Shown here: positions 1 to 56,379 of the stretch, one piece after another
How positions within the stretch are numbered: position 1 is the first letter of the stretch
How the letters are laid out: every line of letters starts with the position of its first letter
Source of the DNA: a virus
Virus record (IMG/VR): IMGVR_UViG_3300033145_001721
Coordinates: 1 to 64,000 of that record
DNA: 64,000 nt
Direction: 5' to 3' (one strand)
Notes under the pieces: model-generated
Told to the model about the DNA's origin: nothing
Database searches by the model: none
What the model saw: the letters and a program-made list of their open reading frames with translations, nothing else
Made by a program: the position numbers and the translations under genes

Positions 1-167
1 TTCGCGCCCACATTGTACCCATAGTATTTGATGATATAGTTCCACAATTCACCAAACGAGAAGCTGAAGATTGGGGTTGGAAGATTATTCAATTCAATCC
101 TGAAAATGGATTCATTCGTGCCCAATTTAATAACGAGGAAATCCAATGCCTCCGCGTAAAGGAATGA
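1..167 (+). CDS. partial hypothetical protein (5' truncated by window)
   Basis: Open frame 3 from the window start to TGA at 165-167, overlapping the next ATG (ATGA). Confidence 0.5.
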   Translation, partial: RAHIVPIVFDDIVPQFTKREAEDWGWKIIQFNPENGFIRAQFNNEEIQCLRVKE

Positions 168-394
168 AGTATCTGAAAACCAACTGCCGGGGATGCATGG
201 GACTCGTAAATGGTTTGTGCATTTTTCATATTCCCATCGAACATTTGATCGATGTCACGACAGGAAATACCACAATCAAACCATTGAGACCCTGCCTTAA
301 ACCCCGAACTAGAAAAAAGCTGGAGAAAGCCCTAGCAGCCCACGTAAGCGATAAAACCGAAAACCTACCCTATCGTACCCCCGTAGGTAGATAG
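164..394 (+). CDS. hypothetical Cys-containing protein
   Basis: ORF 146..394; ATG at 164 is coupled to the upstream stop; CRGC..C motif. Confidence 0.5.
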   Translation: MKYLKTNCRGCMGLVNGLCIFHIPIEHLIDVTTGNTTIKPLRPCLKPRTRKKLEKALAAHVSDKTENLPYRTPVGR

Positions 395-468
395 GCCACT
401 ACACAGGCTGTCTGTGGCCAGAATATTGTTGGAAACGAGGAGAATCGGCCGCAACAAGGAATAAAGGG

Positions 469-528
469 AAAAAAGCGCCCGTGGCTCTTAGTTGGCACAC
501 ACTTTTGGAAAGGCGGCCACGGGCGCTT
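469..528 (-). terminator. intrinsic terminator of the minus-strand arm, with an unusually long 30-nt loop
   Basis: Perfect 13-bp inverted repeat AAGCGCCCGTGGC (473-485) / GCCACGGGCGCTT (516-528), with a U-run on the minus strand, between convergent genes. Confidence 0.75.
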
Positions 529-534
529 GAAAAA

Positions 535-1170
535 CTATCCATATGTGTACAGCTTACATCGTTTAGGCATTGACTTCTCGTTTGAAAAAGACCAAGACCA
601 CGCCTTATGTCGTTTGTAAATTTCCTTCATACTTCCATACCACATTCTGTCCATATGGCACTGTCGAAATTTAGCACCGCTATACAATCCATTTGTATAA
701 ACCGGCGGAATGCAATCTGAACTGAGATGACTCCCATTCGCAAAGCATATGTCTGTCAACATGAGCCTAATCGATAATCTCAGTGTAACAAGATCAAATG
801 TAAACCTATGATCCCCGTGACCATACTCTCCCATTGGATTATGTGTGAAAACACATTCAGGTTTCCATGTATGAATAAACTTGTCAATCTGAATTTGAAA
901 TTGGTTTATCACCATCGGCAATGTAAAATCCTTCGGGTTTGGACTGCGAGGCGACACCCTAGAGAAGTTTGTATCTAACCGATGAAAGGGAACAATTTCA
1001 ATCTTGTTTTGTTTGCTTACTTCTTTCAACGCATCTATGGGTCCAGATCCATATTTTTCGTGATTGTCAGCAAGCGTGATCAACGCTACTTCATGCTCAT
1101 CCCCTTGTAAGATGGGCCACCCAAAAAGGACTTCATCATCCGGGTGTGCCATAATCATTAAGATTCGCAT
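535..1170 (-). CDS. PIG-L/LmbE family N-deacetylase
   Basis: AHPDDE and GEYGHGDH motifs. Confidence 0.85.
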   Translation of the reverse strand: MRILMIMAHPDDEVLFGWPILQGDEHEVALITLADNHEKYGSGPIDALKEVSKQNKIEIVPFHRLDTNFSRVSPRSPNPKDFTLPMVINQFQIQIDKFIHTWKPECVFTHNPMGEYGHGDHRFTFDLVTLRLSIRLMLTDICFANGSHLSSDCIPPVYTNGLYSGAKFRQCHMDRMWYGSMKEIYKRHKAWSWSFSNEKSMPKRCKLYTYG

Positions 1171-1199
1171 CAGTCAACGCCCCCTATTATGTGTGTGGA

Positions 1200-1751
1200 C
1201 TATTCCAATCCGTCATTTCTTAGGTAGTACTTAATTTGTGATATGACATCGGCCCAACTGTTACGAAAGACTACAACGTGAATGCCCAGAGCTTCAATCT
1301 TCTTAGCAATTTCACGCCGGAAAGTACCTATCGCATTTTCCTGACCCGTCATAAAATCATCCACATAAACATAGGGTTTCATTGCAGTCAAAATCGCAAT
1401 CTTTGCAGCCATGTTTGGAACGACGGTCACACTCTCAGGATTAGGCACTTTCAAATTCTTCAACTGACGAATAGTCAACACACCATCCAAGTCATATCCC
1501 CGTGCTGTCAAATATCGTATTTCATTCACAGCAGACAAACCCCAGAGAGTTTCGAGACATTCTATAGGATTCCCAGTAAAATTATCCATTTCCAACTCAG
1601 GCCAAGTCCAAGCCTTTCTGTGTATCTTACCTCCAGGCCATCGGGGAACCGTATTGCATCTAATCCTACGCCAATGATCAACGATTGTACTATCAACATC
1701 AAAGACAAATAGCTTCTTAGTCTCCATGCAAACTTCTCCGCAATGATGCAT
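1200..1751 (-). CDS. HAD-superfamily hydrolase
   Basis: FDVDST motif I, LTAR motif II, YVDD motif IV; start likely at METKK. Confidence 0.75.
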   Translation of the reverse strand: MHHCGEVCMETKKLFVFDVDSTIVDHWRRIRCNTVPRWPGGKIHRKAWTWPELEMDNFTGNPIECLETLWGLSAVNEIRYLTARGYDLDGVLTIRQLKNLKVPNPESVTVVPNMAAKIAILTAMKPYVYVDDFMTGQENAIGTFRREIAKKIEALGIHVVVFRNSWADVISQIKYYLRNDGLE

Positions 1752-2787
1752 ATGCCCGGTCGAACATGGCGTTTTTGTTTAGCCAGTAATTCGTGTAAAA
1801 CGGAATCTCCTTTTGCAATCTGAACTTTTCACGTTTCAAAAATTCAACAAGGGCTGGGGGGCGACTTGGATTATAAAACGGAGGATTCCAATTCGCACGA
1901 TTGAAATATCCCGTAGAAAATCCAGGTTGGACTTCAAGGAAATATGGATTGTTATTCTGGTCGAGAATTACATCAACTCCCTGAAAATTCAATCCTAATA
2001 CACGCACAGACTTAACCAGCATATCCTCATGCTGATGACAAAAATCAGAACAGACTTTTTGACATGTTATAAAAGTCTCTTCCATTTGTGATTCAAAACG
2101 ATTGGTGATAGCAATCCAATCAGAAGGCGATCCCAATCGAGCATACCCTGTAACGACCTTGTCTGCAGCTACAATGATCCGAAAGGACATAATCACATTT
2201 TCGGGTCGCACTGTAGATATGAATTTCACAGCTAGAAGCCTTCGTAACGCCCCACCCTTTTTCAAATCGCCACGAGTCTTTGACATATAAGAATCAAGGT
2301 CTTTCAACGCTTGTTTCGCTTCACCCTCGTCATTCACCAGATATGAATGATAGCCGGTATTAGCGTTGTTAACTCGCACCAACATAGGGAAGTCAAAACT
2401 TTCCTTTTTCTTCTCCCAAAAGTCTTTTGAATTTGAAAATTCAAACCAATCTGGAACTGGAATGGAATTATCCCTCCAGACTTTGAATGCCTCCTCCTTT
2501 GCGTGTGACGCCATCCATCCGCGCGGATCGTTGATATGCTTAATACCTGATGGAAGACGCCTAATTATATCCACACAACGTTTCCATAGATTTTCATCTG
2601 TATATTCTGTATGGAGCTTCCAAACTATCGTATCCGCTTTTGAATGCAAAATCTCGTCCACTGTAATGAAATCTGGCATGTCCTCCAAAACTATTGGCCC
2701 CATATATGTTTCACACATTTCCTTTTCATATGCACGCCAACTAACTCCATGGCCTTTTATGGAGACCACTGAATGTGATTCACTCAT
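1717..2787 (-). CDS. ATP-grasp ligase (RimK-like)
   Basis: FPMLVR, GVDVILD..PYFLEVQ (LEVN-like) motifs. Confidence 0.7.
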   Translation of the reverse strand: MSESHSVVSIKGHGVSWRAYEKEMCETYMGPIVLEDMPDFITVDEILHSKADTIVWKLHTEYTDENLWKRCVDIIRRLPSGIKHINDPRGWMASHAKEEAFKVWRDNSIPVPDWFEFSNSKDFWEKKKESFDFPMLVRVNNANTGYHSYLVNDEGEAKQALKDLDSYMSKTRGDLKKGGALRRLLAVKFISTVRPENVIMSFRIIVAADKVVTGYARLGSPSDWIAITNRFESQMEETFITCQKVCSDFCHQHEDMLVKSVRVLGLNFQGVDVILDQNNNPYFLEVQPGFSTGYFNRANWNPPFYNPSRPPALVEFLKREKFRLQKEIPFYTNYWLNKNAMFDRAYASLRRSLHGD

Positions 2788-3674
2788 TTGTTCAACCTTT
2801 CCGTTTCTAACATTTCTCGAATAGCCACAACAACAGCTTCAAAACTTTGGTCATCACCCGCATACAAAAATAGCTGATATCCTTTCAATGATCGATACAG
2901 ACTAAAACGTTGAGCCAGTGCATTTGTAAAATCGTTTACAACTAACGTAAGCACTGGACCTTCTCCGATTATATAATCGGATGGAATTAAGCTTTCCAAC
3001 AAAGCGCGCCGCTCATCCATCTTAATCCTAAATTTGCCAATATCAAACTTATCTACCGTTTCAAGCAAATCCCAATACAACGGAATAGCAGGTGTGGCTG
3101 GTGTCTCAGATTTCTCCCTGAATCTGAGATATCGACGAAGACTCAAAACACTATCAGTTTCAAGTTTGAAAAACTTATCTACAGACAACCGTTTGCGTAT
3201 ACCTATAATGCTGATGACAGGGTAAGCCCCCAATTGCTTACTGCCGACAGTGGTAAAAATATCAACATCCTCTGGTACAGGATAGTATGGAAAAGCACTT
3301 ACCATATCGGCAAAAAGAATTGATTGGAATGGTTTTAGGTGTGTTGGATTAACTTGTGAACAACTTGTCTCATACAAACAAAAAGCCATGCACAATATTG
3401 GTGGGTCTACTGCGTGAAGCTTTTCAAGTCTATCTAACCTGCCCCCAAATTCGTCTTTGGCGTAGAGACATGTTGTGCCTACATTCAAACTGGAAAGGAC
3501 GATCTCATTAGCCATCGTACCGCTACCAGTAACGAATATGAGATTGAAATCATCCAATCGAGGAAACGTAGTTTTCATTTGGGCTTCTAACAACTGAAGC
3601 AGTTCATGAAACGTATCGTCCCTATGATGATGCACAGGTTTTGCAATCATCGATTTCGCGTTCGGGCCGAACAT
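2784..3674 (-). CDS. PLP-dependent class V aminotransferase (PhnW/serine-pyruvate-like)
   Basis: MFGP..HHRD, TGSGTMANE, DMVSAF, GSKQLG (PLP lysine). Confidence 0.8.
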   Translation of the reverse strand: MFGPNAKSMIAKPVHHHRDDTFHELLQLLEAQMKTTFPRLDDFNLIFVTGSGTMANEIVLSSLNVGTTCLYAKDEFGGRLDRLEKLHAVDPPILCMAFCLYETSCSQVNPTHLKPFQSILFADMVSAFPYYPVPEDVDIFTTVGSKQLGAYPVISIIGIRKRLSVDKFFKLETDSVLSLRRYLRFREKSETPATPAIPLYWDLLETVDKFDIGKFRIKMDERRALLESLIPSDYIIGEGPVLTLVVNDFTNALAQRFSLYRSLKGYQLFLYAGDDQSFEAVVVAIREMLETERLNK

Positions 3675-4819
3675 CTTCCAATCCTTCCATAAACAAATTT
3701 CTTTCCCAGATATTTAAGTACTGCAATACGGTGCATTCCATCCCATGGGTCTTCCGCATTTCTAGGCATCAACCTAATAGGAGTTTCCTGTCCATGTTCG
3801 TTTGCAGTCTTAACCAAATTGATGTAAGACAGAACACGTTCTCTTGCTATTTTTGGGCCCCAAGCTGTAGACCCACAATGTCCATCTCGTTGCCATCTAT
3901 AACATGCAGAATCCGCCAAATTTGATTCATCTGTTCGATTGGATAGCACATCCTTTATGAACTCAGGAAAAATCTTCTGGTAAAATACAGCATTGTAAGG
4001 ATTTAGGGCTATCTGCTTTTCCCAACAATCCTGTATAGGAAGCCGTTTTAATGAACGACTGCGAAACAATAAAACGGTTAAATCTTTCACACGACCTTTC
4101 GCATTCTGCCCCAACAACTTTGCAGGTGTAGAAATACGATGTGTGAAAATCCAATCAGACAAAGGTTTCATTAAATGCTGTAGATATGCAGACTTCGGAT
4201 CGATTACACCTCCTGCATTTTCATCCAGCAGCACAACCAAATACAAACTCTTAGAAGATAATACCCGCAAATATTCAACTAACGCATTTACGCGCATATG
4301 GTAATGAACACAAGACAGCATCGTGATATCTACAATAGGGAACGTATGCATATCAAGTGGCTTCGCATCTGGATGGGCTATGTTAGGTTCCAACGGACCT
4401 ATGCCTCGATTGTATACCTCCAAAGGCATCTTATCATAATAATCACGTGTAACAAGTAATTGATCGAAAGCTCCCAGCCCCGCATCCACCCCAATCAGTC
4501 TATCAAATTTATACTTTTGCCACGCGCGTAAAAGAAACAAACCGGCACTACAACCTACTTCACACAAGGAACTTTGTTCAGATTGTATCCCCAACTTATT
4601 TATATGTTCTAACATCGGTTTTATGTAATGGGTCCACCGGCCATCCCCATATGATCTGTCATTCGTTTTGCCATCCCCAAAATGTGTATTGGGGGACGAA
4701 ATATTGCCATAAGGAACAGACTGATACCAACGTCGCTTTTTCCCAGCTTGATCAATACGCGTTTTCAATTCAGTATCACTCAGCATAATCAATCTCCACA
4801 TTTTTGATGACGACAGCAA
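3647..4819 (-). CDS. SAM-dependent methyltransferase fused to a C-terminal ParB-like domain
   Basis: EVGCSAG SAM motif, VHYH; C-terminal DGMHRIAVLKYLG. Confidence 0.65.
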   Translation of the reverse strand: MLSSSKMWRLIMLSDTELKTRIDQAGKKRRWYQSVPYGNISSPNTHFGDGKTNDRSYGDGRWTHYIKPMLEHINKLGIQSEQSSLCEVGCSAGLFLLRAWQKYKFDRLIGVDAGLGAFDQLLVTRDYYDKMPLEVYNRGIGPLEPNIAHPDAKPLDMHTFPIVDITMLSCVHYHMRVNALVEYLRVLSSKSLYLVVLLDENAGGVIDPKSAYLQHLMKPLSDWIFTHRISTPAKLLGQNAKGRVKDLTVLLFRSRSLKRLPIQDCWEKQIALNPYNAVFYQKIFPEFIKDVLSNRTDESNLADSACYRWQRDGHCGSTAWGPKIARERVLSYINLVKTANEHGQETPIRLMPRNAEDPWDGMHRIAVLKYLGKKFVYGRIGRCSARTRNR

Positions 4820-5480
4820 CAGGAAAAGACCTTATGCCAAGATCCACAAGCTGTATATCATTGATGTCGTCTCGTTTTTTTAGAAACGCATCTATGTCCG
4901 CATATCGAATCATTTGAGGATGATCTATGTTCCCCTGCGTTTTGCGTCTTTCGATTTCATTCTCATCGTCCCCACGACAATCAAACGCCAGGAAGCACAA
5001 TTTGCTCACACGCATACATTCGGAAAGAGTATCAAAGATGTTCCATCCATGATCCAAACAATTATAGCTGACAAGAACATCAATTGAATTATCATCCAAT
5101 GGAATCTTTTCAGCTGCCGATTCTACGTATGTTGCATCTTCGGGCCATTCGCAAAAATCCAAATCAACTAATTCACGTTGAATATAATCGATGAACACCT
5201 TTTTCTTAGCGGGCAAATTGCAAACTTGTAGCACACCCCCAAACGGCCCGGCCCCTACCTCACCCACAATCTTCGTTTCATCTATGTAAAATGGAATGTC
5301 AAATTGGTTCAGAAATTGTTCATAATAAGGCTTCCTGCACACATCCTCCTTGTCCCTATTCTTTATCCACCACGCTATGTTTCTTGCTATGAATTCTCCC
5401 CTAGACTCCAAACCGCCCCTGTGATTTTCCACATCACTCACATGAGTAATCCAATGTAAATTTCGGCTATCTGTACTCAT
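4776..5480 (-). CDS. class I SAM-dependent methyltransferase
   Basis: EVGAGPFG, AEKIPLDDNSIDVLVSYNCLDH. Confidence 0.8.
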   Translation of the reverse strand: MSTDSRNLHWITHVSDVENHRGGLESRGEFIARNIAWWIKNRDKEDVCRKPYYEQFLNQFDIPFYIDETKIVGEVGAGPFGGVLQVCNLPAKKKVFIDYIQRELVDLDFCEWPEDATYVESAAEKIPLDDNSIDVLVSYNCLDHGWNIFDTLSECMRVSKLCFLAFDCRGDDENEIERRKTQGNIDHPQMIRYADIDAFLKKRDDINDIQLVDLGIRSFPVAVVIKNVEIDYAE

Positions 5481-6239
5481 TCAAATACTCCTTTCTGAAA
5501 ATGCATTCCGAACTCCACACTGGCCCCAATGCAACATCATGCATTCGATGGGGGTTTTTTTGCCTTGTATTTGTTTCGTATAATCCCGCATATACTTGGC
5601 ACCGCTTGCCCCCACACACCATTGCTCAGGAAGATAAACAGGAGTGATACCAGTCTTCCATGAAGCACGCCAAAAGGCAAGCGTGCCCCTCATGCAATTC
5701 TGTAGTTCTGCTAAATAAGCAGATAGAAGAATGTGTGCCCTTTCATCCTTCCTATATACAAATAAGGGACTGACGTTACATGCAGGGGCATGTGGTGGGC
5801 CACTGTACTCGTTGTAAGGAATAAAATCCTCTGGCTTTGTATCTGCACCCCTGGCATTGTACTTCACGTATATTCTCGGATTTGTAGGCACACAAACCCC
5901 GAAACGTTCAGCCAATAAAAAGCCATCGGTAAATTCGGAATGTACAATACGCATATCGTCATTGATAACACAATAGGAATCTGCATAAGGTTCTAATGCA
6001 AAACGCGCTGATAGAACATTACAGTTGCGCACACCCCAACGTGGGCTTTCCAACCATTGAAGTTCATTATGAGGAACGATCAATTGTGTGATTTCTTTGG
6101 GTAAATTTCTCTGGTGATCTGTTACCACATAAACGGGAATATTGGGGCTGACTTGTTTCAGATTCTCTAACAACCCATGAACGTTTTTCTCCCTTCCAGG
6201 TCCCAAACTGACGATTAGAATTGCGCGTTTTATTTCCAT
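5481..6239 (-). CDS. putative GT-A fold glycosyltransferase
   Basis: VYVVTD, INDDM (DxD-like) motif; cluster context. Confidence 0.5.
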   Translation of the reverse strand: MEIKRAILIVSLGPGREKNVHGLLENLKQVSPNIPVYVVTDHQRNLPKEITQLIVPHNELQWLESPRWGVRNCNVLSARFALEPYADSYCVINDDMRIVHSEFTDGFLLAERFGVCVPTNPRIYVKYNARGADTKPEDFIPYNEYSGPPHAPACNVSPLFVYRKDERAHILLSAYLAELQNCMRGTLAFWRASWKTGITPVYLPEQWCVGASGAKYMRDYTKQIQGKKTPIECMMLHWGQCGVRNAFSERSI

Positions 6240-7039
6240 CCTAGTCTTTCTTTCTTATCATGCCGAATCATCACATTCGGAAACAAATTCGTTTCGTAAA
6301 TCATCTTTTTCAACTTAGATTTCAAATGAATAACTGCCGCTGTATCTGTATCCCCAATTGCAGCACGAACAAGATTGAAAGCCTCATCCCCCATTGTATC
6401 TGTAGCAGGGCAGTAGTTATATCGTGGGCCAGCGTCAACAATTGACAACCCACGTAATTTCTTCAAAGCGTCTCTTTCCAACCAAGTCGCAACCAAGAAA
6501 TCCTGGCCGACACTCCAGTCCAATCCAAATCGAAAATGATTGTATTTCTTCCTAACTGCTATATATGCATCCCAAGTATTTTCAAATATTTCATCCACGT
6601 GCCAAGCCACCCATTTTCTAACACATGAATTCACACGCAAGTAGAAGATCCCACCATTGATTGGAAACAGATGTTTGTATCCCCTTGTTGTAATCCCTAT
6701 ATCCATACCCCTGTTATCTTCAAATGGTTTGAAAGGATCTGCCTGAAAATACACATCTACATCAGACACAAGAATTTTGTCGTTGTACGAAAAATATTGC
6801 TGAAAACAGTGGAGCAACATTTCAATCTTGCATGTTGCGCGACGTTTAAGCATTTGCTTTGGATCGACCATCTGCCACCAGACATTGTAATTATCAGATA
6901 GAAACGATTTCACAATGTCTGGAACTCCATCGGTAACAATAATGATCTGGACATCAGATGTAACTTCACGCAAACTGTGAATACACGTTTCCAGCATGTT
7001 GTTGTCTCTTTGATGGTACGTGAAGTACGCAAATTTCAT
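6230..7039 (-). CDS. nucleotide-diphospho-sugar transferase
   Basis: DVDVYF..DPF, INGGIFY, GQD..V, YNY, IHLK. Confidence 0.75.
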   Translation of the reverse strand: MKFAYFTYHQRDNNMLETCIHSLREVTSDVQIIIVTDGVPDIVKSFLSDNYNVWWQMVDPKQMLKRRATCKIEMLLHCFQQYFSYNDKILVSDVDVYFQADPFKPFEDNRGMDIGITTRGYKHLFPINGGIFYLRVNSCVRKWVAWHVDEIFENTWDAYIAVRKKYNHFRFGLDWSVGQDFLVATWLERDALKKLRGLSIVDAGPRYNYCPATDTMGDEAFNLVRAAIGDTDTAAVIHLKSKLKKMIYETNLFPNVMIRHDKKERLGWK

Positions 7040-7656
7040 TACAATCTCCTTGCTTTGCTACCTTGAACATTTACGATACGCCGAAATCGACGGGATGCTT
7101 GATAGTGTACGATAACTCCATTGTGGACGTTTCGCATTAGATCAAATATCTTACAGTACTGGGCTGGAAGGCATCCAAATTTGAGATCATACTTTTTGGA
7201 GTTTATCAGTTCTTGTAGCAAATCTGGATTGCGTTTTCTCCACTTTTTCTCCATGCACAATTCTGCCCAATCGACAACAAACTTTTGCACAATAGGAGTA
7301 TTGCGAAAAAAGATAGTTCCACCTAAAAGTTCATTACGGTGCCAGGGAAAATCATGTACATGAGCTGCAATGTCTGCAATGAATTTCGGGTCTTCAAAGA
7401 GAATCGGATATCGTTCAAAAACCGCGTCGGCATCAACCCGCAAAATATCCCTATCAGGAAAACGATACAAAGCATCTTGAATAACTCTGCTACAAAAGTT
7501 GCTATTCTTTCTCCAAGTTCCTAGAGATTTGATGGGAGTTAGATCCAACTCCAATTTCCATTTCCGACACGATTCAACAAGGTTCTTCACCTCCTCTTCA
7601 TACGGTGTATCTACCGTATAATGTGACACAATCAAAGGCATTGTCATTCTAGTCAA
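7039..7656 (-). CDS. glycosyltransferase (GT-A)
   Basis: VDADA DxD motif, LGGTIFF, LPAQYC, IVHYQASR. Confidence 0.75.
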   Translation of the reverse strand: MTRMTMPLIVSHYTVDTPYEEEVKNLVESCRKWKLELDLTPIKSLGTWRKNSNFCSRVIQDALYRFPDRDILRVDADAVFERYPILFEDPKFIADIAAHVHDFPWHRNELLGGTIFFRNTPIVQKFVVDWAELCMEKKWRKRNPDLLQELINSKKYDLKFGCLPAQYCKIFDLMRNVHNGVIVHYQASRRFRRIVNVQGSKARRL

Positions 7657-8260
7657 TCTCCTTTCTATATTCGATATATTCGTTTAGCTTACTTGTAGGA
7701 GAATGACTGATCACTTCCAATCCTGCTTCTTTTATCTTTTCCAATGCCGTCACAAAATGCCCAAAATATTCTGTAAGATGTGTAACACCACTACGATATT
7801 GAGCATGAAAATTACTTCCACCGTTATGATGTAAATCCATTCCCAATAGATGAATCCTTTTCGCCCCTAATATTATTGCTAACTGCATTCCACAAAATCC
7901 GCTATTTTGACCTGTGCAAAATCCATTCCCATTAACATAAATCTGTCCGTCAAATCGAGTGGGTTTGATATGCCAATCATATTGTTTCAAAAAAGGTTCT
8001 ACTCTATGAAAGAATTTGTGATCTTCCCGCATCACAAGAACCTTGCAACATGCACATCCCCAAAAATTGTTAACTGCCGCGCATCGAGCATATACACTAT
8101 CGGCAGTTAAAAAATATGAAGGTTTTGGAACAAACTTAATGGCTCCATTGATTGCAATCGTTGATTTTGAACGTATTTGCTCCCAATCAAAATCTTTCAG
8201 AGAAGGCCCACATCCTATGACATACACATCGTCAGAAATGTTATAATTTCGATCATCCAT
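7649..8260 (-). CDS. MptE/Maf-like (glycosyltransferase-associated Rossmann-fold) protein
   Basis: VIGCGPSL, AIN, NSG..GMQLAIILGAKRIHLLGMD; paralog of 25458..26111. Confidence 0.65.
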   Translation of the reverse strand: MDDRNYNISDDVYVIGCGPSLKDFDWEQIRSKSTIAINGAIKFVPKPSYFLTADSVYARCAAVNNFWGCACCKVLVMREDHKFFHRVEPFLKQYDWHIKPTRFDGQIYVNGNGFCTGQNSGFCGMQLAIILGAKRIHLLGMDLHHNGGSNFHAQYRSGVTHLTEYFGHFVTALEKIKEAGLEVISHSPTSKLNEYIEYRKEID

Positions 8261-8274
8261 ATCAGTATTCCGTC

Positions 8275-11200
8275 TTATGCTGTCACGTCAACCTTAACTT
8301 CCAAAAGAGCTACAATTCTACATCGAGCATCCGTATCGAATCTGATAGCCTTCCAAGCGGCCCCAACGGTCAAGTAGCTTGAAATATCAATATCTAATTG
8401 ATCTCCACTATACGAACCGATTTGTGCCCCAAATCCAGAACCATCGTCAATATGAAAATCAACGTTTACAGAATTGCTCTCTTCAAAGATATTATAATTC
8501 AAATCGTGATTATGCATAGGTGTTGTATGAGAATGGGTTGGAACCGTAACGCTGTGTGTATGTGTTGCTGTGATATTGTGGGTGTGGCCATTAACGCTAT
8601 GTATATGATTATTAAGTCCATGCATATGAGTAGTAATAGCATGCTGATGACTTCCAGTTCCATCTGCATATTGTGTATATGGTGTTCCGCCCGATGCAGT
8701 ACTACCCGAAGCTCCACCTGTTTGTGTTCCGCTATCTGTTGATGTATTTAGAGAATTCCCAGAACCTGTTGTACCACTACCTCCTGCAACTATACTGGTA
8801 GTCATTCCAGCATCATTAGCGGCTCCTGTAGCGTATGCTCGATAATCCTTTATCTTGAACGAAAGCTTAGCCGAAATAAGAGCAGTAGTTTCACTAGGTA
8901 ACTTAAAATCGAATGTATATGGGTGATTAGCATCTAAAGAATCCTCACCAGTCCAAGCCATTGTTTGTCGCAGCTCAGCATAAGACTCTGCTCTTATAGT
9001 TCCAGCCAAGACTAAGCCAGCATGTAGCAATTGCATTGGAGTTGAACATACATGGACTTCGTTGTCCTTCAAGATAGCTACAACCCAATTGCCAGAAGCA
9101 ATTGCAGTATTAAGATCATCTGTTGACAAAAATCGATCTGTAAAATCTGGGTCCCAATAGATGTATTCTTTTGTAGATAAATCAGCAGTTATCTCATACG
9201 TTACGCCTCGATATCGGAAAGTAATAGGCTCCCCCACAGTTCGAGCATCCCAAGATACGGTTGTTCCCCCTGAATCTGACGTCCATTCACAATTGCTTAT
9301 CCAAGGAATATCAATATTTGGTTGTGGTGGCAACTGTTTGTTAATCAAATCAGAAATGTTACGCCACGTAACAGGAACATCTTCCAAACCAGAACGTTTC
9401 GACGGTGCAGGCCAAATATAATCAGGATTTGGATTGTCTGGATCAAAAGAGTCTTCATCTGTAAACAAAGCAGATGTGTAGGTTTCCACTGTAATTTCAT
9501 AATAGTTATCTACCGACTGTGCGATTTTGATTATTCGCCTCGTTTTTACGGCACTATCTGTTTTCGATGCAGCAGCTACATCGTCTTTCTGGGGGATAGG
9601 ATCTAAGGGTTCTTCAAAAGTTACAGAACACCCGACCTTGCTTGCTACTGTATACGACTTAACCTGAACATCGTTGACACCTGATGAACTATCAAATGCA
9701 CGGATGTAAAATAAATCACCCACAGCCACATCAACTACCCTATCAAATGTAGCTGTGTACACATTTGATTCTACAGACACGACACGATAGTTTTCGCCCC
9801 AATTAGGAGTCTTTGCTTGCAAACAAATAACATCACCCAAATGATGACGAATAGCGTCCTTATGCATTTTGAATTTGTTGATATTTCTGATCAATCGATT
9901 TCGATCTAGTGCAAATTTGGCTATTCGTACAGTGCCACTCCATCGAGTTTCACCGGAGCCTTCGATTTCGATAGAACGCGTGTACACACCACTGTCTTCA
10001 TCGCTGTATGGATATGACGTGCGTTCATATCCAATATCCTCATCACGATAAAACACGTTGATTGTACCCGCCATTTCGCTTTGACCTATCCATACATTCT
10101 CCCAACTGCGAGATATGATGTTGTCCCACGTAACTAAATCTGAATCAGCATCTGCGACTTCAGCATCTAGCCATCCACTTAATTTAGTCCCCTCCCAAAA
10201 CAACTTAGCTCTGCCTACTTGAGCCAATTTGTATGCTAATGAAAACAGATTCTGTTTTGTGTCTACATTAAAATTGCAAACAGATCTTTCTTCTGTGCCA
10301 CCCTTCCCGTCAGGCACAAGAGTAGCGCACCAAACAGCCCATTCGTAAAAGAAAGCAGTATCAATATTCGCAATAGGAATTCCTTCGTATCGCTCTATAA
10401 CGTATGGATCGCCACTTTCCCCTGTACCACTAATGACAGGTTGTGTTACTATATCCAAAACAACCCATGCTCGATTGTTACTGTATTTAAGAGACCAAGA
10501 CATACCATCATAGACATTAACGATTCTGCCCTGCCGGACACCTTTTACATCCAACGACGTATTCAAAGATCCTGTAGCTAATGCCGTTACGCCCATTAAG
10601 ATTCTACCAGGTCGCGTAAAAGCTACGTCTATCACCTCACGTATAGATTTGAGGTATGATTTTGTAGTGCGACGTTCATCGTCAGCAGATGTTGAGCGTG
10701 TAAACTTCACATCATATTGAGTACCCCTTTCTATAATAAAAGAATACTCCGAATCCAGTTCAGATACTTTGATGCTAACGAACTTGGCTGTTAACTGCTC
10801 CCCCGTTATGTTTTCATCATAAATCGTAGACCAAGAATTCAAACCCCTTTTGCTCATCTCGATTTTGATATGTACAGTAGCATGCGTTTCGCTTCCGTCG
10901 TGATGATATTTGATAAGTCCATAAGGAAAAGATATTGTAAACTCAAGATCATCAAAAAAGTTATTTGGAGTAGTAAAAGTTTGGGCTCCTCCGTCCTTAG
11001 TCAATTCCCAATTAAGAGAATACTCAATTTTCTCTTTTTCAAAACCCTCCATCACAGTTTGATTCATTGTGCCCAAGCGTTCTTGAGTAACAACATCTGC
11101 AAAATTGCCAGCCGGTTGGTCGTTTAAGTATTGAATGTTAGCTCCGGCTCCAGCTACCGGACCTTCACCATAATCGATAATTAAATTTAGGATTTCATTA

Positions 11201-11715
11201 TCGTCGTCATTTACAGACGTCCACTCAGAAACAACATTGCCATGCATCATTAAGTTGCCATAAGGTCTAGGTCTTGCAAGACCCTCACGCTTTCTTGTTC
11301 GGGGATTCCAACTATAATTTTCTGACGGATCGTCTCCACCTTGTGTTTCATCATAATCTTGATTGAACAGCATCCCGCCCAAATAAGAAAAAGCAAAAGC
11401 AATTGCCACTTGCACAGCTATAGGCCAAACATAAACTATAGCAGCCCATATGAATGCAAAAAATTCAACATCAGGTAAAAACTCAACTTTACAACCTGGA
11501 CGAACTCTGGTAGTTTTCCAATCGCATTTAGAAATTATTTGCCCATCTAAGCGTATAACCCAATGACCTTCTGGCACGCAACGCTTTTTCAATGTAGATA
11601 ACCGCTCGCGCCTACAAATGTATTCGCCTATATCAGCTTGGGGTGCCTGATCTTTAACTGGGTGTCTCCAGATGTGGATGTAAAAAGTACTACACATGTG
11701 AATAGTATCCTTCAA
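8275..11715 (-). CDS. tail tip / host specificity protein (lambda gpJ-like) with N-terminal gpI-like part and C-terminal His-repeat needle
   Basis: PRPYG..HGNV, GEGP, NRAWVVLD, GDVI; C-terminal HxH repeats; position in tail module. Confidence 0.85.
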   Translation of the reverse strand: MKDTIHMCSTFYIHIWRHPVKDQAPQADIGEYICRRERLSTLKKRCVPEGHWVIRLDGQIISKCDWKTTRVRPGCKVEFLPDVEFFAFIWAAIVYVWPIAVQVAIAFAFSYLGGMLFNQDYDETQGGDDPSENYSWNPRTRKREGLARPRPYGNLMMHGNVVSEWTSVNDDDNEILNLIIDYGEGPVAGAGANIQYLNDQPAGNFADVVTQERLGTMNQTVMEGFEKEKIEYSLNWELTKDGGAQTFTTPNNFFDDLEFTISFPYGLIKYHHDGSETHATVHIKIEMSKRGLNSWSTIYDENITGEQLTAKFVSIKVSELDSEYSFIIERGTQYDVKFTRSTSADDERRTTKSYLKSIREVIDVAFTRPGRILMGVTALATGSLNTSLDVKGVRQGRIVNVYDGMSWSLKYSNNRAWVVLDIVTQPVISGTGESGDPYVIERYEGIPIANIDTAFFYEWAVWCATLVPDGKGGTEERSVCNFNVDTKQNLFSLAYKLAQVGRAKLFWEGTKLSGWLDAEVADADSDLVTWDNIISRSWENVWIGQSEMAGTINVFYRDEDIGYERTSYPYSDEDSGVYTRSIEIEGSGETRWSGTVRIAKFALDRNRLIRNINKFKMHKDAIRHHLGDVICLQAKTPNWGENYRVVSVESNVYTATFDRVVDVAVGDLFYIRAFDSSSGVNDVQVKSYTVASKVGCSVTFEEPLDPIPQKDDVAAASKTDSAVKTRRIIKIAQSVDNYYEITVETYTSALFTDEDSFDPDNPNPDYIWPAPSKRSGLEDVPVTWRNISDLINKQLPPQPNIDIPWISNCEWTSDSGGTTVSWDARTVGEPITFRYRGVTYEITADLSTKEYIYWDPDFTDRFLSTDDLNTAIASGNWVVAILKDNEVHVCSTPMQLLHAGLVLAGTIRAESYAELRQTMAWTGEDSLDANHPYTFDFKLPSETTALISAKLSFKIKDYRAYATGAANDAGMTTSIVAGGSGTTGSGNSLNTSTDSGTQTGGASGSTASGGTPYTQYADGTGSHQHAITTHMHGLNNHIHSVNGHTHNITATHTHSVTVPTHSHTTPMHNHDLNYNIFEESNSVNVDFHIDDGSGFGAQIGSYSGDQLDIDISSYLTVGAAWKAIRFDTDARCRIVALLEVKVDVTA

Positions 11716-12013
11716 TAATTAGAGACCACGGCCATTGTGTCAATCGTCCTTTACGCACAACATAAGTCCCGTTCTTTTCCACCTCTGCATGCACAAAATG
11801 CAAACCATCAGGCCACACAACACCTGCGTGCCAATCGCTACTGACTCTCAATAATACAACAGCACCAACCCTCGGAGAATCAATCTTAACCATATCCGTA
11901 GGTTCAAATGGTTTATGAATACCTTGCAATACTCCCACACACCAAACAGCAAAGTTCCAGCAATTGCCATCCCATACTTTGCCAATTTGATTTTGAATCG
12001 TATTATTCATCAC
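11690..12013 (-). CDS. NlpC/P60 tail assembly protein (gpK-like)
   Basis: NCW, HAGV, FVHA catalytic pattern between gpL-like and gpJ-like genes. Confidence 0.75.
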   Translation of the reverse strand: MMNNTIQNQIGKVWDGNCWNFAVWCVGVLQGIHKPFEPTDMVKIDSPRVGAVVLLRVSSDWHAGVVWPDGLHFVHAEVEKNGTYVVRKGRLTQWPWSLIIEGYYSHV

Positions 12014-12645: not shown

Positions 12646-15021
12646 CTACCAATCCATCAATAACGTATATAACATGCTGAAATGAAATATTACAGGATCT
12701 GCAGTTGGGCTTGCCCCATCATCGGGAGCGACACGCTTTAGCTGCAAACCAATACCATCCCCAGCATCTATGTTTGTCGCAGCAATTGTTCCCAACGTAT
12801 ATTCCATCATTGCATTTGCTTCGGTTGGAATGTTCAAATCGCCGGAATCTATAGTTCCTGTTTGTCCCTCAGATGTGATTATTTCAGTGCCATCTTTCTT
12901 TACTGTACGCCAAGGAATCTCCCATTGTATTTCACCACTTGCAGTGGCATAAGCTTCATCAGTCGCAACACAAATTTTAATTGTCAAATCTTCAGATGTA
13001 TCACAATCATCTGGCACGTCTATTGTGAATATAGAATCGTCACCAATATCATAACTAACACCTTCAAAATACCCCACAATAACTGAATCAGGTCCTTGCG
13101 AACCTAATGACAAATCTTGCGGGACACGACGAATATTTCGAGTATCGCGTGCTGCTGTAGTAATAAGACCATCAGCGTCAATATGCAAAAATCCTGTTTC
13201 GTCTATCTCAACGTCTGTTGGCAAAGTGATCGGATGATCGGCTGTTGAAGCTGGACCAATTAGTTTAATATAGTTGCTACCGTTGTCGCTATCCTCATAA
13301 AGATCGATGTAACCGGCGGATGTGACTCCGTTGCAAACAGCCAAGCCAGCCTGGGCCATCAGGGGCATGGTGGATTCCGGAACAAATTTGGCTTCATTGA
13401 TGAACTTCTCGGCTAACTCGGCACTGGCGAACTCCACCAGTTGCATGTTGGCTATCAGGAAGGTTGGATTCGCCGTGGCGTGTTCATTCCAGAGGCGGCA
13501 ATTGGCCGACGATGTCGTTCCCTCTGTGTGACGGGCAACGCCCCAATATCGTGTCCATCGATCCGTATATGCCCGCATATTCCGGGATCGCAAGACGGTT
13601 GAAGTCGATCTGAACGCAACTGAGAGATATCCTTCGCTCGTGACACTCTTTAAGTCCAAGCTCCAGACGTACCACTTAGCTGTCGTAATCGTATAATTCG
13701 GCCACAATATTACGCCATCATCCACTTCCTGTCCCGCTTGGTCGAACGTTACTGTCATGCAGTTGCCATGAATCGGAGCGGAGTAAGCCGATGAAAATTC
13801 CACCGTGTTATCGTTCGCATCTGTAGGCGTAAATGACGAAATCATTGAACCATTCGTCAATTTATTCGTCTTGGTTCGGTCCAGTGTGGTGGCCATGGGT
13901 CCGGGAGCAATCTGCGAAAACGCAAAGGAACTGGTCAGCCAACGACTGGTATGATACACGTCGTTCAGGGCATAACCTGACGTGTGTGCACTGTAGGGAG
14001 TACCGTGGTTGGCCGTCACGGTATAAGTCGTTCCGCTGTCAGTCTCTAGTGTCCAGTTGTCCACATCAATTGTGCATCCGTCCAGTACCACGCGACAGGC
14101 TCCAGACAGTTTGATACTATGTAAATCCAGGTTCCTCAGAGTCACATTGCGAACTCCAGAAAAGTAAAACTCAAAGGGGGCTGTAGGAGTGCCATCAATC
14201 AAAACGGTTTCCCCGATGCAATTGCCCTCCAGGTGAGTCGAGTCGAAGATCACTGGAAACGACTGGTCGTGCCCTTCCATATAGGTGACGAATCCTACTG
14301 TGTTTTCAATGATTCCTCCCCGCACAAGAATTTCGCCGAGAGCGTTATCGGATCGCAGAGCGGCTATTTTGGCACCTGAGGAATAACAATTGTCTATCAG
14401 GGCACTGGCCGACTGCATCGCCGGAAGTCCCTCGGTATACCAATCGTAGTTATTGTTTATAAGATAACAGTCTCGAAAGCACCATCCAAAGCAACCCAAA
14501 GATGTAAACGCATGTCCACATTCGGAAAAGATGCATTTTTCCACGGTCAGATTTGCGATTCCTCCCGTAGTGGAATTGACCTTGTAGATTCCATGTTTTG
14601 TGTTTGATGCCCCTTGAAATTTAATCCCTGAAACCTTTTGATTGCCGCCCGAACCACTAAGCGTCAAGGCATACTCGCTGGCATTGACCGCTTCCATTAT
14701 CGTTGCACTCGGACCCGCCCCTTCAATACGCACGTACTTGTTTGCCGTGACCGTAGCCAAGTATATTCCCGCAGGCAGTTTGACCGTCCCATAAGGACTG
14801 GTGCCTGCCTTGTCAAAGGCCGCCTGAATTGCATCGGAATCGTCCGTCACACCGTCACCCTTGGCGCCGAAAGCCCACACATTAAAAACAGGCGATTTCT
14901 TACTAACCACATCGGTAGCAAAAAGTATTTCCCGTTCGGGCGGTAATGTGGGAGCATCCGCAGAAACCAAACCACAACACGCAAACATCAAAACAAATGT
15001 ATACACCAAAAACGTTTTCAT
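12646..15021 (-). CDS. pectate-lyase-like beta-helix protein (tailspike/depolymerase-like) with N-terminal signal peptide
   Basis: FNVWAFGAKGDGVTDDSDAIQAA..LPAGIY motif; hydrophobic N-terminus ending VSA. Confidence 0.75.
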   Translation of the reverse strand: MKTFLVYTFVLMFACCGLVSADAPTLPPEREILFATDVVSKKSPVFNVWAFGAKGDGVTDDSDAIQAAFDKAGTSPYGTVKLPAGIYLATVTANKYVRIEGAGPSATIMEAVNASEYALTLSGSGGNQKVSGIKFQGASNTKHGIYKVNSTTGGIANLTVEKCIFSECGHAFTSLGCFGWCFRDCYLINNNYDWYTEGLPAMQSASALIDNCYSSGAKIAALRSDNALGEILVRGGIIENTVGFVTYMEGHDQSFPVIFDSTHLEGNCIGETVLIDGTPTAPFEFYFSGVRNVTLRNLDLHSIKLSGACRVVLDGCTIDVDNWTLETDSGTTYTVTANHGTPYSAHTSGYALNDVYHTSRWLTSSFAFSQIAPGPMATTLDRTKTNKLTNGSMISSFTPTDANDNTVEFSSAYSAPIHGNCMTVTFDQAGQEVDDGVILWPNYTITTAKWYVWSLDLKSVTSEGYLSVAFRSTSTVLRSRNMRAYTDRWTRYWGVARHTEGTTSSANCRLWNEHATANPTFLIANMQLVEFASAELAEKFINEAKFVPESTMPLMAQAGLAVCNGVTSAGYIDLYEDSDNGSNYIKLIGPASTADHPITLPTDVEIDETGFLHIDADGLITTAARDTRNIRRVPQDLSLGSQGPDSVIVGYFEGVSYDIGDDSIFTIDVPDDCDTSEDLTIKICVATDEAYATASGEIQWEIPWRTVKKDGTEIITSEGQTGTIDSGDLNIPTEANAMMEYTLGTIAATNIDAGDGIGLQLKRVAPDDGASPTADPVIFHFSMLYTLLMDW

Positions 15022-19049: not shown

Positions 19050-19418
19050 TCAGTTTCCCTCAGTCTCATCTTCCTCGTCAAGCTTGTTGAGCTTTTGTGC
19101 AATTTCAAACAATTCCTTTTGAACCTTATGCGGAAACTTACCGATCTCCGGTACACTTACTTTCACCCCATCTGCTTTGAACAAACAGACAGATAGCAAC
19201 GAACTGTACATACCCTTATAACTCTTGATAGACTTCACCCGCACTTTGCCATTCTCATCCACCTCAACATCCAATCTGTCTCGATTGGATTCGAGATAGC
19301 CTTCCAAATCATCCCCAGACATTTCCCGCAAGATGAATGTTTCTTCTTGTCCCGCCACATTGATGAGAACGACGCGTTGCTCTTTCAGTTTCAAACTTAG
19401 CTTGATCGGATCATTCAT
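19050..19418 (-). CDS. tail assembly chaperone (gpG-like)
   Basis: Upstream of tape measure; ends GAG GGA AAC TGA. Confidence 0.8.
   Translation of the reverse strand: MNDPIKLSLKLKEQRVVLINVAGQEETFILREMSGDDLEGYLESNRDRLDVEVDENGKVRVKSIKSYKGMYSSLLSVCLFKADGVKVSVPEIGKFPHKVQKELFEIAQKLNKLDEEDETEGN
19053..19059 (-). other. -1 programmed ribosomal frameshift slippery site GGGAAAC
   Basis: The -1 frame reads GKLTVRERSWYRLATRLHMSKQR into 18661..19005 with no stop. Confidence 0.85.
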
Positions 19419-25047: not shown

Positions 25048-25458
25048 TCAAGAACTTGTTTCTATCGAATTTGGATTTTCCGTACCTGCCCAATCTAAAT
25101 CCACGGTCCTTCCTAAACCATCCTTCATCGATTTGTCCAGTGCCGCAAGGGCACCACTCCAATCCAATCTCATTGCGGTTTGACCAAACTCCGTTGAATT
25201 GAAACCAAGATCCTCCGCGTGTTGGTAAGTCTCCGCGATTGTACTCACTTTTTCTGAGGTTGTTCGTCGGTATTTCAACGAATACAAATGAGCAGTTAGA
25301 TACCGTTCAATCAATTCCAATTCAGTTGCCGTGAATCCTGTATCTGTGCAATGTTTCGTTACAATTACATTTGCAACTGTGATAATAGAATCAATGGTTG
25401 TATCCGAATCCAACTCAACTATTGTGCCAACCAATATTGATGTTGTCCTGACAGCCAT
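25048..25458 (-). CDS. head-tail adaptor
   Basis: IERYLTAHL, ST.FGQ.A..LD. Confidence 0.75.
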   Translation of the reverse strand: MAVRTTSILVGTIVELDSDTTIDSIITVANVIVTKHCTDTGFTATELELIERYLTAHLYSLKYRRTTSEKVSTIAETYQHAEDLGFNSTEFGQTAMRLDWSGALAALDKSMKDGLGRTVDLDWAGTENPNSIETSS

Positions 25459-56372: not shown

Positions 56373-56379
56373 GGATGTT

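Follow-up and report, generated by a model that had tools for sequence, protein, structure and literature searches.

Introduction

Phage-encoded glycosylation of virions is already known from actinobacteriophages, in which, according to Freeman et al. (2023) as cited in PMC12619734, capsid and tail-tube subunits bear glycans at their C-terminal ends. A second system relevant to this work acts on the bacterial surface. As set out in PMC11800397 and PMC11800379, in the Campylobacter jejuni HS:2 capsule pathway the pyridoxal phosphate (PLP) enzyme Cj1437 transaminates dihydroxyacetone phosphate to serinol phosphate; Cj1438, which carries an N-terminal family 2 glycosyltransferase (GT2) and a C-terminal ATP-grasp domain (Cj1438C), ligates serinol phosphate through the latter to the C6 carboxylate of in-chain glucuronate; and the product is finally dephosphorylated by Cj1435, a HAD enzyme. 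Here, we analyze a block of ten genes located behind the tail genes of an uncultured phage, the IMG/VR virus record IMGVR_UViG_3300033145_001721 (referred to as G000; 74,972 bp, with a 114-bp terminal repeat and a completeness estimate of 100%). The window under study is the first 64 kb (positions 1 to 64,000) of this record.

The block was initially annotated as a glycan synthesis and tailoring pathway appended to the tail operon. Our analysis makes its assignment as a glycan synthesis and tailoring module highly probable. It does not seem, though, to be a one-off appendage: sequence comparisons show that many siphophages, which form a large group, carry a hypervariable glycan island at a constant site behind the tail genes, and that the block is one version of it. 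The reading that we prefer, namely that the module builds a glycan on the virion, has in our estimate an even chance of being correct.

Organization of the Post-Tail Gene Block

We found that the region 535-8260 is filled by ten co-directional minus-strand open reading frames (ORFs), labeled g01 to g10 in the order of transcription (Table 1), which start directly after gpJ, the final structural gene ahead of the island. The successive spacings from gpJ through g10 are 14, -8, -1, -10, 0, -44, -28, -4, -35, and +29 nt. The tight coupling of the ten genes to gpJ, already pointed out in the initial annotation, is thus borne out by the ORF layout, with spacings within the block ranging from -44 to +29 nt. 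Equally, the proposed list of enzymes (an MptE/Maf-like protein, three GT-A transferases, two methyltransferases, a class V aminotransferase, an ATP-grasp ligase, a HAD hydrolase and a PIG-L deacetylase) found support in all assignments, the softest being two of the GT-A calls and the fusion of one methyltransferase to ParB.

A terminator scan in which loops of up to 8 nt were allowed detected no terminator-like site on the minus strand between positions 8275 and 535. RNA folding indicated a strong intrinsic terminator after g10, which closes the late operon (hairpin of -28.6 kcal/mol, z -4.31; 0 of 200 shuffles equally stable) and was missed by the scan due to its loop limit. The tight spacings, the lack of an internal terminator and the strong terminator behind g10 together imply that the block forms the 3' end of the tail transcription unit. 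Judged by gene arrangement, the island is predicted to be co-transcribed with the late and tail genes. As for the encoded proteins, none of the ten contains a 19-residue window with a Kyte-Doolittle mean of at least 1.6 (the maximum being 1.39), and all ten enzymes are predicted to be soluble, with no membrane-type segment.

Maf/MptE-Like Proteins and Variability of the Island

The first gene of the block, g01, encodes a minimal Maf/GT42-like protein. Its match with the Pfam MptE-like family PF01973 (24.5 bits) lies under the cut-off of 34.6, as does that of its paralog gX (19.6 bits), which is described below; a precomputed PF01973 mark is attached to 22 of the 37 listed proteins of the g01 family, a set that includes the window protein, itself without the mark. 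We built an AlphaFold2 (AF2) model from an alignment of 26 sequences, i.e., 25 of the 37 listed proteins (the window's own included) and gX, which reached a predicted local distance difference test (pLDDT) value of 92. In a VIA comparison this model scored highest with Maf (5mu5; Z 14.6, root-mean-square deviation 3.2 over 172 residues), followed by Cst-I (Z 13.1), Cst-II (Z 12.4) and the MptE kinase (Z 11.7); the first unrelated folds reached a Z of at most 4.5. The family profile aligns with Cst-II over nearly its full length (E 1.8e-5), with the N-terminal GxGPSL motif in register, and residues G16, G18, S20, and L21 are invariant in the 26 sequences. Residue H168 of g01 is aligned with the His of the Cst-II GHS motif, a position taken by Met in gX, and H152 is nearly invariant across the family; the catalytic base of Cst-II we take to be His188. 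On the evidence of the model, g01 is predicted to fold like Maf and the Cst sialyltransferases, while the gene context suggests the use of a cytidine monophosphate (CMP)-ulosonic-acid donor.

The paralog gX, which shares 26% identity with g01 (E 5e-12), is encoded in the head module of G000, and its ortholog occupies the same place in the head module of a second complete phage, G002. A scan of viral contigs with both gX sequences yielded 209 contigs, of which the best 80 were retained. In 71 of these best 80 loci, the gX relative is preceded, at a distance of 1.4-1.7 kb upstream, by a homolog of the G000 capsid protein, and in 55 it is followed by a DUF4054-like connector; some of the nine loci without a capsid match merely end short upstream. 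This conserved gene context indicates that gX belongs constantly to the head module throughout a large group of phages.

The post-tail site is, in turn, highly variable within this group. When 17 of the records behind the 80 gX loci, mostly longer contigs, were searched for the ATP-grasp protein, only G002, which served as the positive control, was found to encode it; nine of the records have a completeness of 90% or more, and G002 is the one carrier among these. A g01 profile search of 12 records identified a g01-type gene besides gX in seven (G000, G002, G005, G008, G009, G010, and G011), and gX only in the other five. In the complete phages G005, G008, G009, G010, and G011, the g01-type gene follows the large tail protein and heads a set of 8-13 co-directional genes, the content of which differs from phage to phage. 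The island of G008 (locus L113) encodes a GT2, a methyltransferase, a rhamnosyltransferase-like protein, NeuB (217.8 bits), FkbM, SDR, and CTP_transf_3 proteins, whereas that of G011 (L114) comprises genes for methyltransferases, GT2, a ParB_N-methyltransferase fusion, a radical SAM/SPASM enzyme and PF03407. MptE-GT2 fusions are present in two islands: in G005 (L115) together with FkbM, a GT9-like gene, a methyltransferase and PF03407, and in G009 (L116) together with FkbM, a polysaccharide pyruvyl transferase fused to a nitroreductase, GT2, GT4, and PF03407. The G010 island (L117) contains GT2, a GT11-like gene, GDP-mannose 4,6-dehydratase, FkbM, a cytidylyltransferase-like gene, DUF2061, and PF03407. 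Two findings, the MptE-GT2 fusions and the MptE-like gene that is followed by genes for NeuB and a CMP-sugar synthetase, provide our best evidence that the MptE-like proteins act as sialyltransferase-type glycosyltransferases and not as kinases.

Table 1. Genes of the post-tail island of G000, its terminator and related features of the late operon (window coordinates)
Feature	Length (aa)	Position	Strand	Basis
g01, minimal Maf/GT42-like (MptE-like) transferase	203	7649-8260	-	PHROG 4603 8.6e-20; AF2 model
g02, GT-A-like nucleotide-diphospho-sugar transferase, DAD motif	205	7039-7656	-	PF03407 19.4 bits, under cut-off 22
g03, GT-A-like nucleotide-diphospho-sugar transferase, DVD motif	269	6230-7039	-	PF03407 20.5 bits, under cut-off 22
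g04, GT-A-fold transferase, DD motif	252	5481-6239	-	Atlas structure matches, TM 0.69-0.80
g05, class I S-adenosylmethionine (SAM) methyltransferase	234	4776-5480	-	Methyltransf_11 29 bits vs 21.2
g06, class I SAM methyltransferase (residues ~12-256) with C-terminal extension	390	3647-4819	-	Atlas feature and structure matches to methyltransferase clusters; invariant motifs
g07, short class V (fold type I) PLP aminotransferase	296	2784-3674	-	profile vs PDB
g08, RimK/LysX/ArgX-like ATP-grasp ligase	356	1717-2787	-	Pfam RimK 34.7 bits vs 21
g09, HAD-superfamily phosphatase	183	1200-1751	-	invariant HAD motifs
g10, PIG-L family de-N-acetylase	211	535-1170	-	PF02585 42.5 bits vs 28.2
Intrinsic terminator closing the late operon (12-bp GC-rich stem with inner helix, then U6)		469-527	-	RNA folding
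gpJ-type central tail fiber / tip attachment protein	1146	8275-11715	-	Pfam FNIII-A_GpJ 50.7 bits vs cut-off 27; PHROG 31 'central tail fiber J' 1.2e-89
Pectate-lyase-like, exopolysaccharide (EPS)-depolymerase-like tail protein		12646-15021	-	late operon
Tape measure		15810-18668	-	late operon
gX, second Maf/MptE-like gene, g01 paralog		25458-26111	-	PHROG 4603 4.8e-26; head module, two genes after major capsid gene
Major capsid gene		26594-27703	-	late operon

Aminotransferase, ATP-Grasp Ligase, and Phosphatase Genes

Genes g07, g08, and g09 encode the three enzymes on which the amide-forming part of the pathway would depend. The g07 profile matches more than 20 class V entries of PDB at E 1.2e-14 to 1e-5, among them 3f0h (1.2e-14), an aminoethylphosphonate (AEP)-transaminase fusion (6pd1, 1.6e-12), and SerC (1.3e-11); the PLP lysine K146 and the pyridine-binding D123 are invariant in 13 sequences. 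As the solved class V enzymes have a length of around 360-390 aa, the C-terminal domain of g07 seems to be reduced. Since solved relatives handle phosphoserine and aminoethylphosphonate, a phosphorylated amine would fit as the product of g07.

For g08, an AF2 model was made from 22 of 41 listed proteins, the window's own included (pLDDT 92). Foldseek searches with this model retrieved ArgX (6.8e-14), RimK (1.3e-13), and LysX (6.6e-13), and then Ddl, and no TupA-like family was present among the Pfam matches of g08 at E 0.01 or better. The protein represents a distinct small family, of which a search of 1.84 billion proteins gave 53 representatives with E of 1e-30 or better. Its relatives in viral contigs were recovered by an alignment-based scan, whereas a scan with a single-protein pattern gave none. 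In g09 and its relatives, residues D18, D20, and T22 of the DxDxT motif (motif I), the motif III lysine K117, and the motif IV acidic pair D131 and D132 are invariant in 12 sequences; the weak matches with HAD-IIIA, PNK-phosphatase, NT5C, and Acid_phosphat_B models all lie under the family cut-offs, and comparison of the g09 profile with PDB sequences gave nothing meaningful. The deacetylase g10 carries the AHPDDE zinc motif at residues 8-13.

In the relatives P0037 and P0105, an ATP-grasp domain of the g08 type and a HAD domain of the g09 type are naturally joined in one protein (BLASTP 2e-14; hhalign E 1e-46), which suggests that the ligase and the phosphatase act in succession on one molecule. 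In the more distant relatives P0151 and P0159, a putative glycosyltransferase (DUF6716) is fused to ATP-grasp. As for the initial proposal that deacetylase, ATP-grasp ligase and aminotransferase build an amide-tailored glycan, the amide step is plausible, given that the trio g07-g08-g09 forms a conserved core (see below) and that ligase-phosphatase fusions exist.

An alternative function of these enzymes would be protein tailing, in which g08 extends or caps the C-terminus of a virion or carrier protein, or the synthesis of a soluble amino-sugar metabolite by the trio, PIG-L and the glycosyltransferases, following a logic similar to that of mycothiol or aminoglycosides; neither would decorate a glycan bound to a protein. 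The closest folds, ArgX, RimK, and LysX, indeed modify protein C-termini, and several short loci carry the core trio without a glycosyltransferase nearby. Mycothiol is synthesized by a glycosyltransferase, a phosphatase, a PIG-L deacetylase and a ligase, in this order. However, ATP-grasp relatives are fused to a putative glycosyltransferase, the trio resides inside large sugar-nucleotide and glycosyltransferase islands in loci L022 and L018 (described below), and no gene for a LysW-like carrier was seen in the island. When the C-termini and the Ser/Thr content of the structural proteins were inspected, they offered no decisive acceptor tail, and the sole conspicuous acidic C-terminus belongs to a 122-aa protein (19050-19418). 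Overall, protein tailing or a small-molecule product appears quite improbable to us.

Conservation of the Block and of the Core Trio

Loci carrying g08 relatives were compared in a set of 18, from which L006 was excluded as near-identical to L005 and L010 at the protein level; these three retain 10 of 10 genes at 66-84% identity and, given their near-identical proteins, are counted as one lineage. In the complete 58.7-kb phage G002 (L007; 64% GC), nine of the ten genes are found right after gpJ with 41-52% identity, g05 being the one that is missing. Partial gene sets are present in L009 and L012. The phages that conserve the block in synteny have GC contents of 38-66%. The former is a 6.5-kb contig in a metagenome-assembled genome titled Babeliales bacterium, on which g01-g04, g07, and g08 come after a phage tail protein; the contig has the appearance of a piece of phage DNA that was assigned to a cellular bin. 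Alongside g08, the 18 loci encode g07 in 16 cases, g09 in 14 and g10 in nine, several of the absences being contig ends, and their GC content spans 0.30-0.66. The gene content of these loci identifies the g07-g08-g09 trio as the core, with glycosyltransferases, methyltransferases and PIG-L as variable additions. A homolog in XacN1 has an uninformative context, with hypothetical proteins beside ribonucleotide reductase.

Comparison of the two complete carriers showed that G000 and G002 have TerL, portal, MuF, head and tail genes as well as the island in common, whereas none of the plus-strand replication genes of G000 has a counterpart in G002 at E 1e-5 or better. The island thus travels with the virion module. 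Other contexts of the core do occur. In L022 (33% GC), the trio is part of a run of 24 co-directional genes (1-21035), whose sugar genes encode GT4, GT2, FkbM methyltransferase, a CTP_transf_3 fusion, an MptE-like protein, a PseB-like dehydratase and epimerases; the run also includes a second, PylC-like ATP-grasp gene followed by PIG-L, a SLOG/YspA-like gene, an HMGL-like-cytidylyltransferase fusion and a 2-oxoglutarate oxygenase gene. The context of the trio in L018 is similar. In turn, in the L008/L015 lineage the core is placed between primase-helicase and resolvase/SSB genes, accompanied by GT4, GT-A, a second ATP-grasp gene and PIG-L. Post-tail position taken by itself as proof of a virion role was rejected on account of this lineage.

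GT-A Transferases and Methyltransferases

Neither g02 nor g03 reaches the PF03407 cut-off (Table 1), but their orthologs match this family at E 0.01 or better in three of four and three of five cases, respectively, one ortholog in each set being above the cut-off. For g04, no Pfam family was assigned and the profile had no meaningful match among PDB sequences. Its Atlas matches include clusters of Nucleotid_trans, GT8, and TOD1_MUCI70, with TM values of 0.74 and 0.71 to clusters meeting the PF03407 bar, and D95 of the DD motif is invariant in the alignment. Structural evidence for the GT-A fold, from an Atlas model, covers g04. The DAD, DVD and DD sequences of g02, g03 and g04, respectively, correspond to the DxD motif for metal and nucleotide-sugar binding, located behind a hydrophobic strand.

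Both methyltransferases of the initial annotation stand, whereas the ParB fusion claimed for one of them comes down to a motif match. Of the two, g05 is an optional member of the island, being the gene that G002 lacks. The start of g06 is probably at codon 12, with residue 12 being the first residue of the Atlas sequence. No Pfam match was found for g06, and neither its profile nor the single sequence gave a meaningful match in PDB. The C-terminal part of g06 contains a ParB/Srx-like DGxHR, which hhalign aligned with the ParB_N protein of the same phage over 17 columns (E 0.056), i.e., at motif level; one Atlas cluster, 40% of whose members contain ParB_N, reaches g06 only at a score of 0.84. 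A ParB_N-methyltransferase fusion with the opposite domain order is encoded by the L114 island (6067-7047; 26.1 bits, cut-off 26.3).

The initial annotation had also named packaged DNA as a possible target, whereby the transferases would glycosylate a hydroxymethylated base and the remaining enzymes would tailor the sugar. Such a pathway has a precedent in phage GT-A/GT-B enzymes that hypermodify 5-hydroxymethylcytosine with diverse glycans, as described in bioRxiv 10.1101/2023.12.21.572611, and it would suit the ParB-like motif of g06, the position of the L008/L015 core among replication genes, and the weak similarity of g09 relatives to a 5'-deoxynucleotidase family. Yet six-frame searches of the two complete carriers, G000 and G002, detected the ThyA-type synthase/hydroxymethylase family PF00303 in neither (control positive in 10 of 14 genomes), nor the C5-cytosine methylase family PF00145 (control positive in 9 of 14 genomes); Tet_JBP (PF12851) was likewise found in neither, but there the positive control was also silent. 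ThyX is the sole thymidylate enzyme of G000. The lack of a ThyA-type hydroxymethylase and of a C5-methylase in both carriers speaks against DNA glycosylation, as do the inheritance of the island with structural rather than replication genes and the location of gX in the head module. With the controls for both families working, DNA as the target was not supported, and we regard it as very improbable.

Proposed Pathway and Acceptor

In our preferred reading, the enzymes of the island would build and modify a short chain of sugars, for which proteins of the phage particle itself are the likeliest carriers; a virion protein as the acceptor is marginally favored by our assessment. As all the island enzymes are predicted to be soluble, they would be expected to work in the cytoplasm of the infected cell. 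The g01 enzyme, of the Maf/GT42 type, would probably add a carboxylate-bearing ulosonic sugar from a CMP donor, and g02-g04 would add further sugars. Methylation would be carried out by g05 and g06, while g10 would remove an N-acetyl group, the freed amine being an alternative ligation partner or a site of N-methylation. The trio would then introduce the amide: g07 would make a phosphorylated amine, g08 would join this amine to the sugar carboxylate, or its carboxylate to the amine freed by g10, and g09 would finally strip the phosphate. This mechanism of the trio seems to us plausible, although its chances fall just short of even.

A more specific, and in our view rather unlikely, version is that the product is a strain-variable sialic-acid-like glycan of the virion. 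In this case, the capsid-adjacent Maf-like enzyme would prime a head protein and the exchangeable post-tail island, anchored by the second Maf-like gene, would elaborate the glycan in a manner similar to bacterial O-antigen or flagellin glycosylation islands, with the variant in the window adding an amide-linked amino alcohol or amino acid. If true, no glycan with both an amide decoration and an ulosonic acid would have been described on a phage virion before, and the surface sugars of phages would seem to be under diversifying selection.

Several observations weigh against the virion-glycan reading. The phage is known from a metagenome alone, and the glycan, its acceptor and the donor are deduced from genes. 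The MptE-like fold is common to pterin and thiamine pyrophosphokinases (Z 9-11.7), so the fold alone is no proof of transferase activity. Family scans of G000 found no ulosonic-acid synthase or CMP-activating enzyme, which means that the donor would have to be host-derived. The closest folds of g08 belong to enzymes that act on proteins, not sugars, and the L008/L015 core sits among replication genes instead of tail genes. Finally, gX is present without the trio in eight of nine complete relatives; hence, the island is not needed for the role of gX.

The enzymes might instead remodel host-surface glycans, acting at the cytoplasmic face on the infected cell's lipid-linked or ABC-pathway intermediates of capsule, lipopolysaccharide or teichoic acid, or on a surface protein such as flagellin or pilin. 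The receptor would thereby be altered, so that fewer cells are superinfected or fewer progeny phages are lost by binding to debris. The precedent for the trio does act on a growing capsular polysaccharide, and with soluble enzymes. The depolymerase-like tail protein of G000 suggests that a host polysaccharide is probably the receptor, and the variability of the island could track the diversity of host glycans. Moreover, L022 may be a cellular sugar island, and one variant of the island, in G010, includes a predicted membrane protein (DUF2061). On the other hand, there is no membrane segment, flippase or polymerase among the ten proteins, no integrase was found in the genome, which looks virulent, and the position in the late operon would place expression after the time when exclusion is most helpful. 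The fixation of the paralog gX in the head module (71 of the best 80 loci) and the inheritance of the island with structural genes also speak for the virion rather than the host surface. The initial annotation had argued against serotype conversion from the absence of a transporter or membrane glycosyltransferase; this absence was confirmed, but the argument holds only in part, as soluble enzymes can act on lipid-linked or ABC-pathway glycans, the Campylobacter capsule enzymes being an example. All in all, we consider remodeling of the host surface a serious, if improbable, alternative.

Genome Setting

The late operon of G000 extends on the minus strand from around 43.8 kb down to 535. It encodes, in order, both terminase subunits (the small one first), portal, MuF-like and scaffold-like proteins, the decoration protein (27757-28203), and major capsid, followed by connectors, tape measure, the pectate-lyase-like tail protein, tail L, and gpJ. 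The replication module runs on the plus strand from around 44 kb across the record end, converging on the end point of the late operon, and comprises genes for helicases, primase, a split PolA, a clamp-loader-like protein, a recombinase, exonucleases and ThyX. Family scans of G000 detected no integrase, and the phage looks virulent. Among cultured phages, no nucleotide match to window positions 1-12000 and no tblastn match to g08 were found; thus, it has no close cultured relative.

Some further features of this genome and of its relatives are worth reporting. The pectate-lyase-like tail protein begins with a strongly hydrophobic segment (Kyte-Doolittle mean over 19 residues of 2.05 at residue 3), and different proteins occupy its position in relatives. 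Two small sigma-factor-like genes are found where the late and replication modules diverge (37964-38509, minus strand, and 44057-44614, plus strand; Sigma70_r2 23.8 bits; PHROG 351). On the plus strand, the region 53609-57780 encodes two PHROG 13321 proteins (53609-54658 and the radical-SAM protein at 56380-57780) on either side of a 241-aa gene and an aldo-keto reductase gene (55377-56372); this set may serve a modification or metabolic pathway of its own. Two plus-strand ORFs together encode the split family A DNA polymerase, at 62053-63330 of the window and 63305-64699 of G000, the first of which carries a domain of the uracil-DNA-glycosylase superfamily. The ThyX of G000 (74068-74889) consists of 273 aa and has no intein, while that of 80%-identical relatives (L005, 10783-12438; L006, 12847-14502) has 551 aa and an intein splicing domain. 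Besides the terminal repeat (74859-74972 vs 1-114), the first 105 bases of the window recur a third time at G000 74705-74809, within or just after ThyX and 154 bp upstream of the record end; this copy may be genuine, as a direct repeat, or may have arisen during assembly.

Significance and Comparison With Known Systems

Relative to the actinobacteriophage systems, as they are presented in PMC12619734, what is new here is the set of enzymes, the amide-decoration trio, the conserved capsid-adjacent Maf-like gene in a large uncultured group, and the island-like variability. We found no description of such a system in the literature, most subscription journals lying outside the search. If the virion-glycan reading is true, virion glycosylation is not peculiar to actinobacteriophages but widespread, modular and fast-evolving, considering that the capsid-adjacent enzyme is encoded in 209 viral contigs, and the glycan chemistry of phages, with ulosonic acids, amide decorations, pyruvylation, and methylation, would rival that of bacterial surface glycans. 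It would also bear on evasion of host or animal recognition, on sticking to particles or mucus and on virion stability. The island itself supplies small soluble glycan-tailoring enzymes, including a distinct ATP-grasp family.

DNA hypermodification clusters resemble the island in that phage GT-A/GT-B genes are clustered with tailoring enzymes and are widespread in metagenomes (bioRxiv 10.1101/2023.12.21.572611). However, they adjoin genes for a C5-methylase and a TET-like oxygenase, or for a ThyA-type hydroxymethylase, and neither the C5-methylase nor the ThyA-type enzyme was found in G000 and G002.

A similar gene order is encountered in the phiCbK-like phage CcrColossus (gp126-gp131) and in the Brevundimonas phage Bambus, in which an MptE-like gene follows the large tail protein, ahead of the lysis genes. 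The space between the MptE-like and lysis genes holds, in CcrColossus, genes annotated as a nucleotide-diphospho-sugar transferase and a methyltransferase along with a GT9-like one. Nevertheless, only the MptE-like gene is detectably homologous to its counterpart in G000 (25-32% identity), and the phiCbK-like phages possess neither the trio nor PIG-L. In the literature we found no characterization of their post-tail genes as sialyltransferase genes.

With the Maf flagellin islands and the Cst sialyltransferases (5mu5, 2p2v, 1ro7), the system shares the fold (Z 12-14.6) and the N-terminal nucleotide-binding motif, as well as the association with NeuB, CMP-sugar synthetase and variable tailoring genes. 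It differs from the Maf systems in that g01 and gX are bare catalytic domains of around 200 aa without the flanking domains of Maf, and in that their context is not that of flagellin.

As to the Campylobacter trio (PMC11800397 and PMC11800379), the three enzyme classes are the same, as is the deduced order of phospho-amine formation, ATP-dependent ligation and dephosphorylation, and in both cases the ATP-grasp domain can be fused to a glycosyltransferase. The likeness of g07-g09 to Cj1437, Cj1438C, and Cj1435 is drawn at the level of enzyme class. There are two differences: Cj1438C is TupA-like while g08 is RimK/LysX-like, which tells against our interpretation of the trio, and g07 is a short class V enzyme. 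Since g08 is not TupA-like, its relation to Cj1438C is a functional analogy and not membership in the same family.

Finally, the actinobacteriophage systems, as far as PMC12619734 presents them, differ from the island described here, known from genes alone, in that the latter combines Maf/GT42-like and PF03407-type GT-A transferases with a deacetylase, a ligase, an aminotransferase, a phosphatase and methyltransferases. What the two have in common is the presence of phage glycosyltransferase genes in or beside the structural operon.

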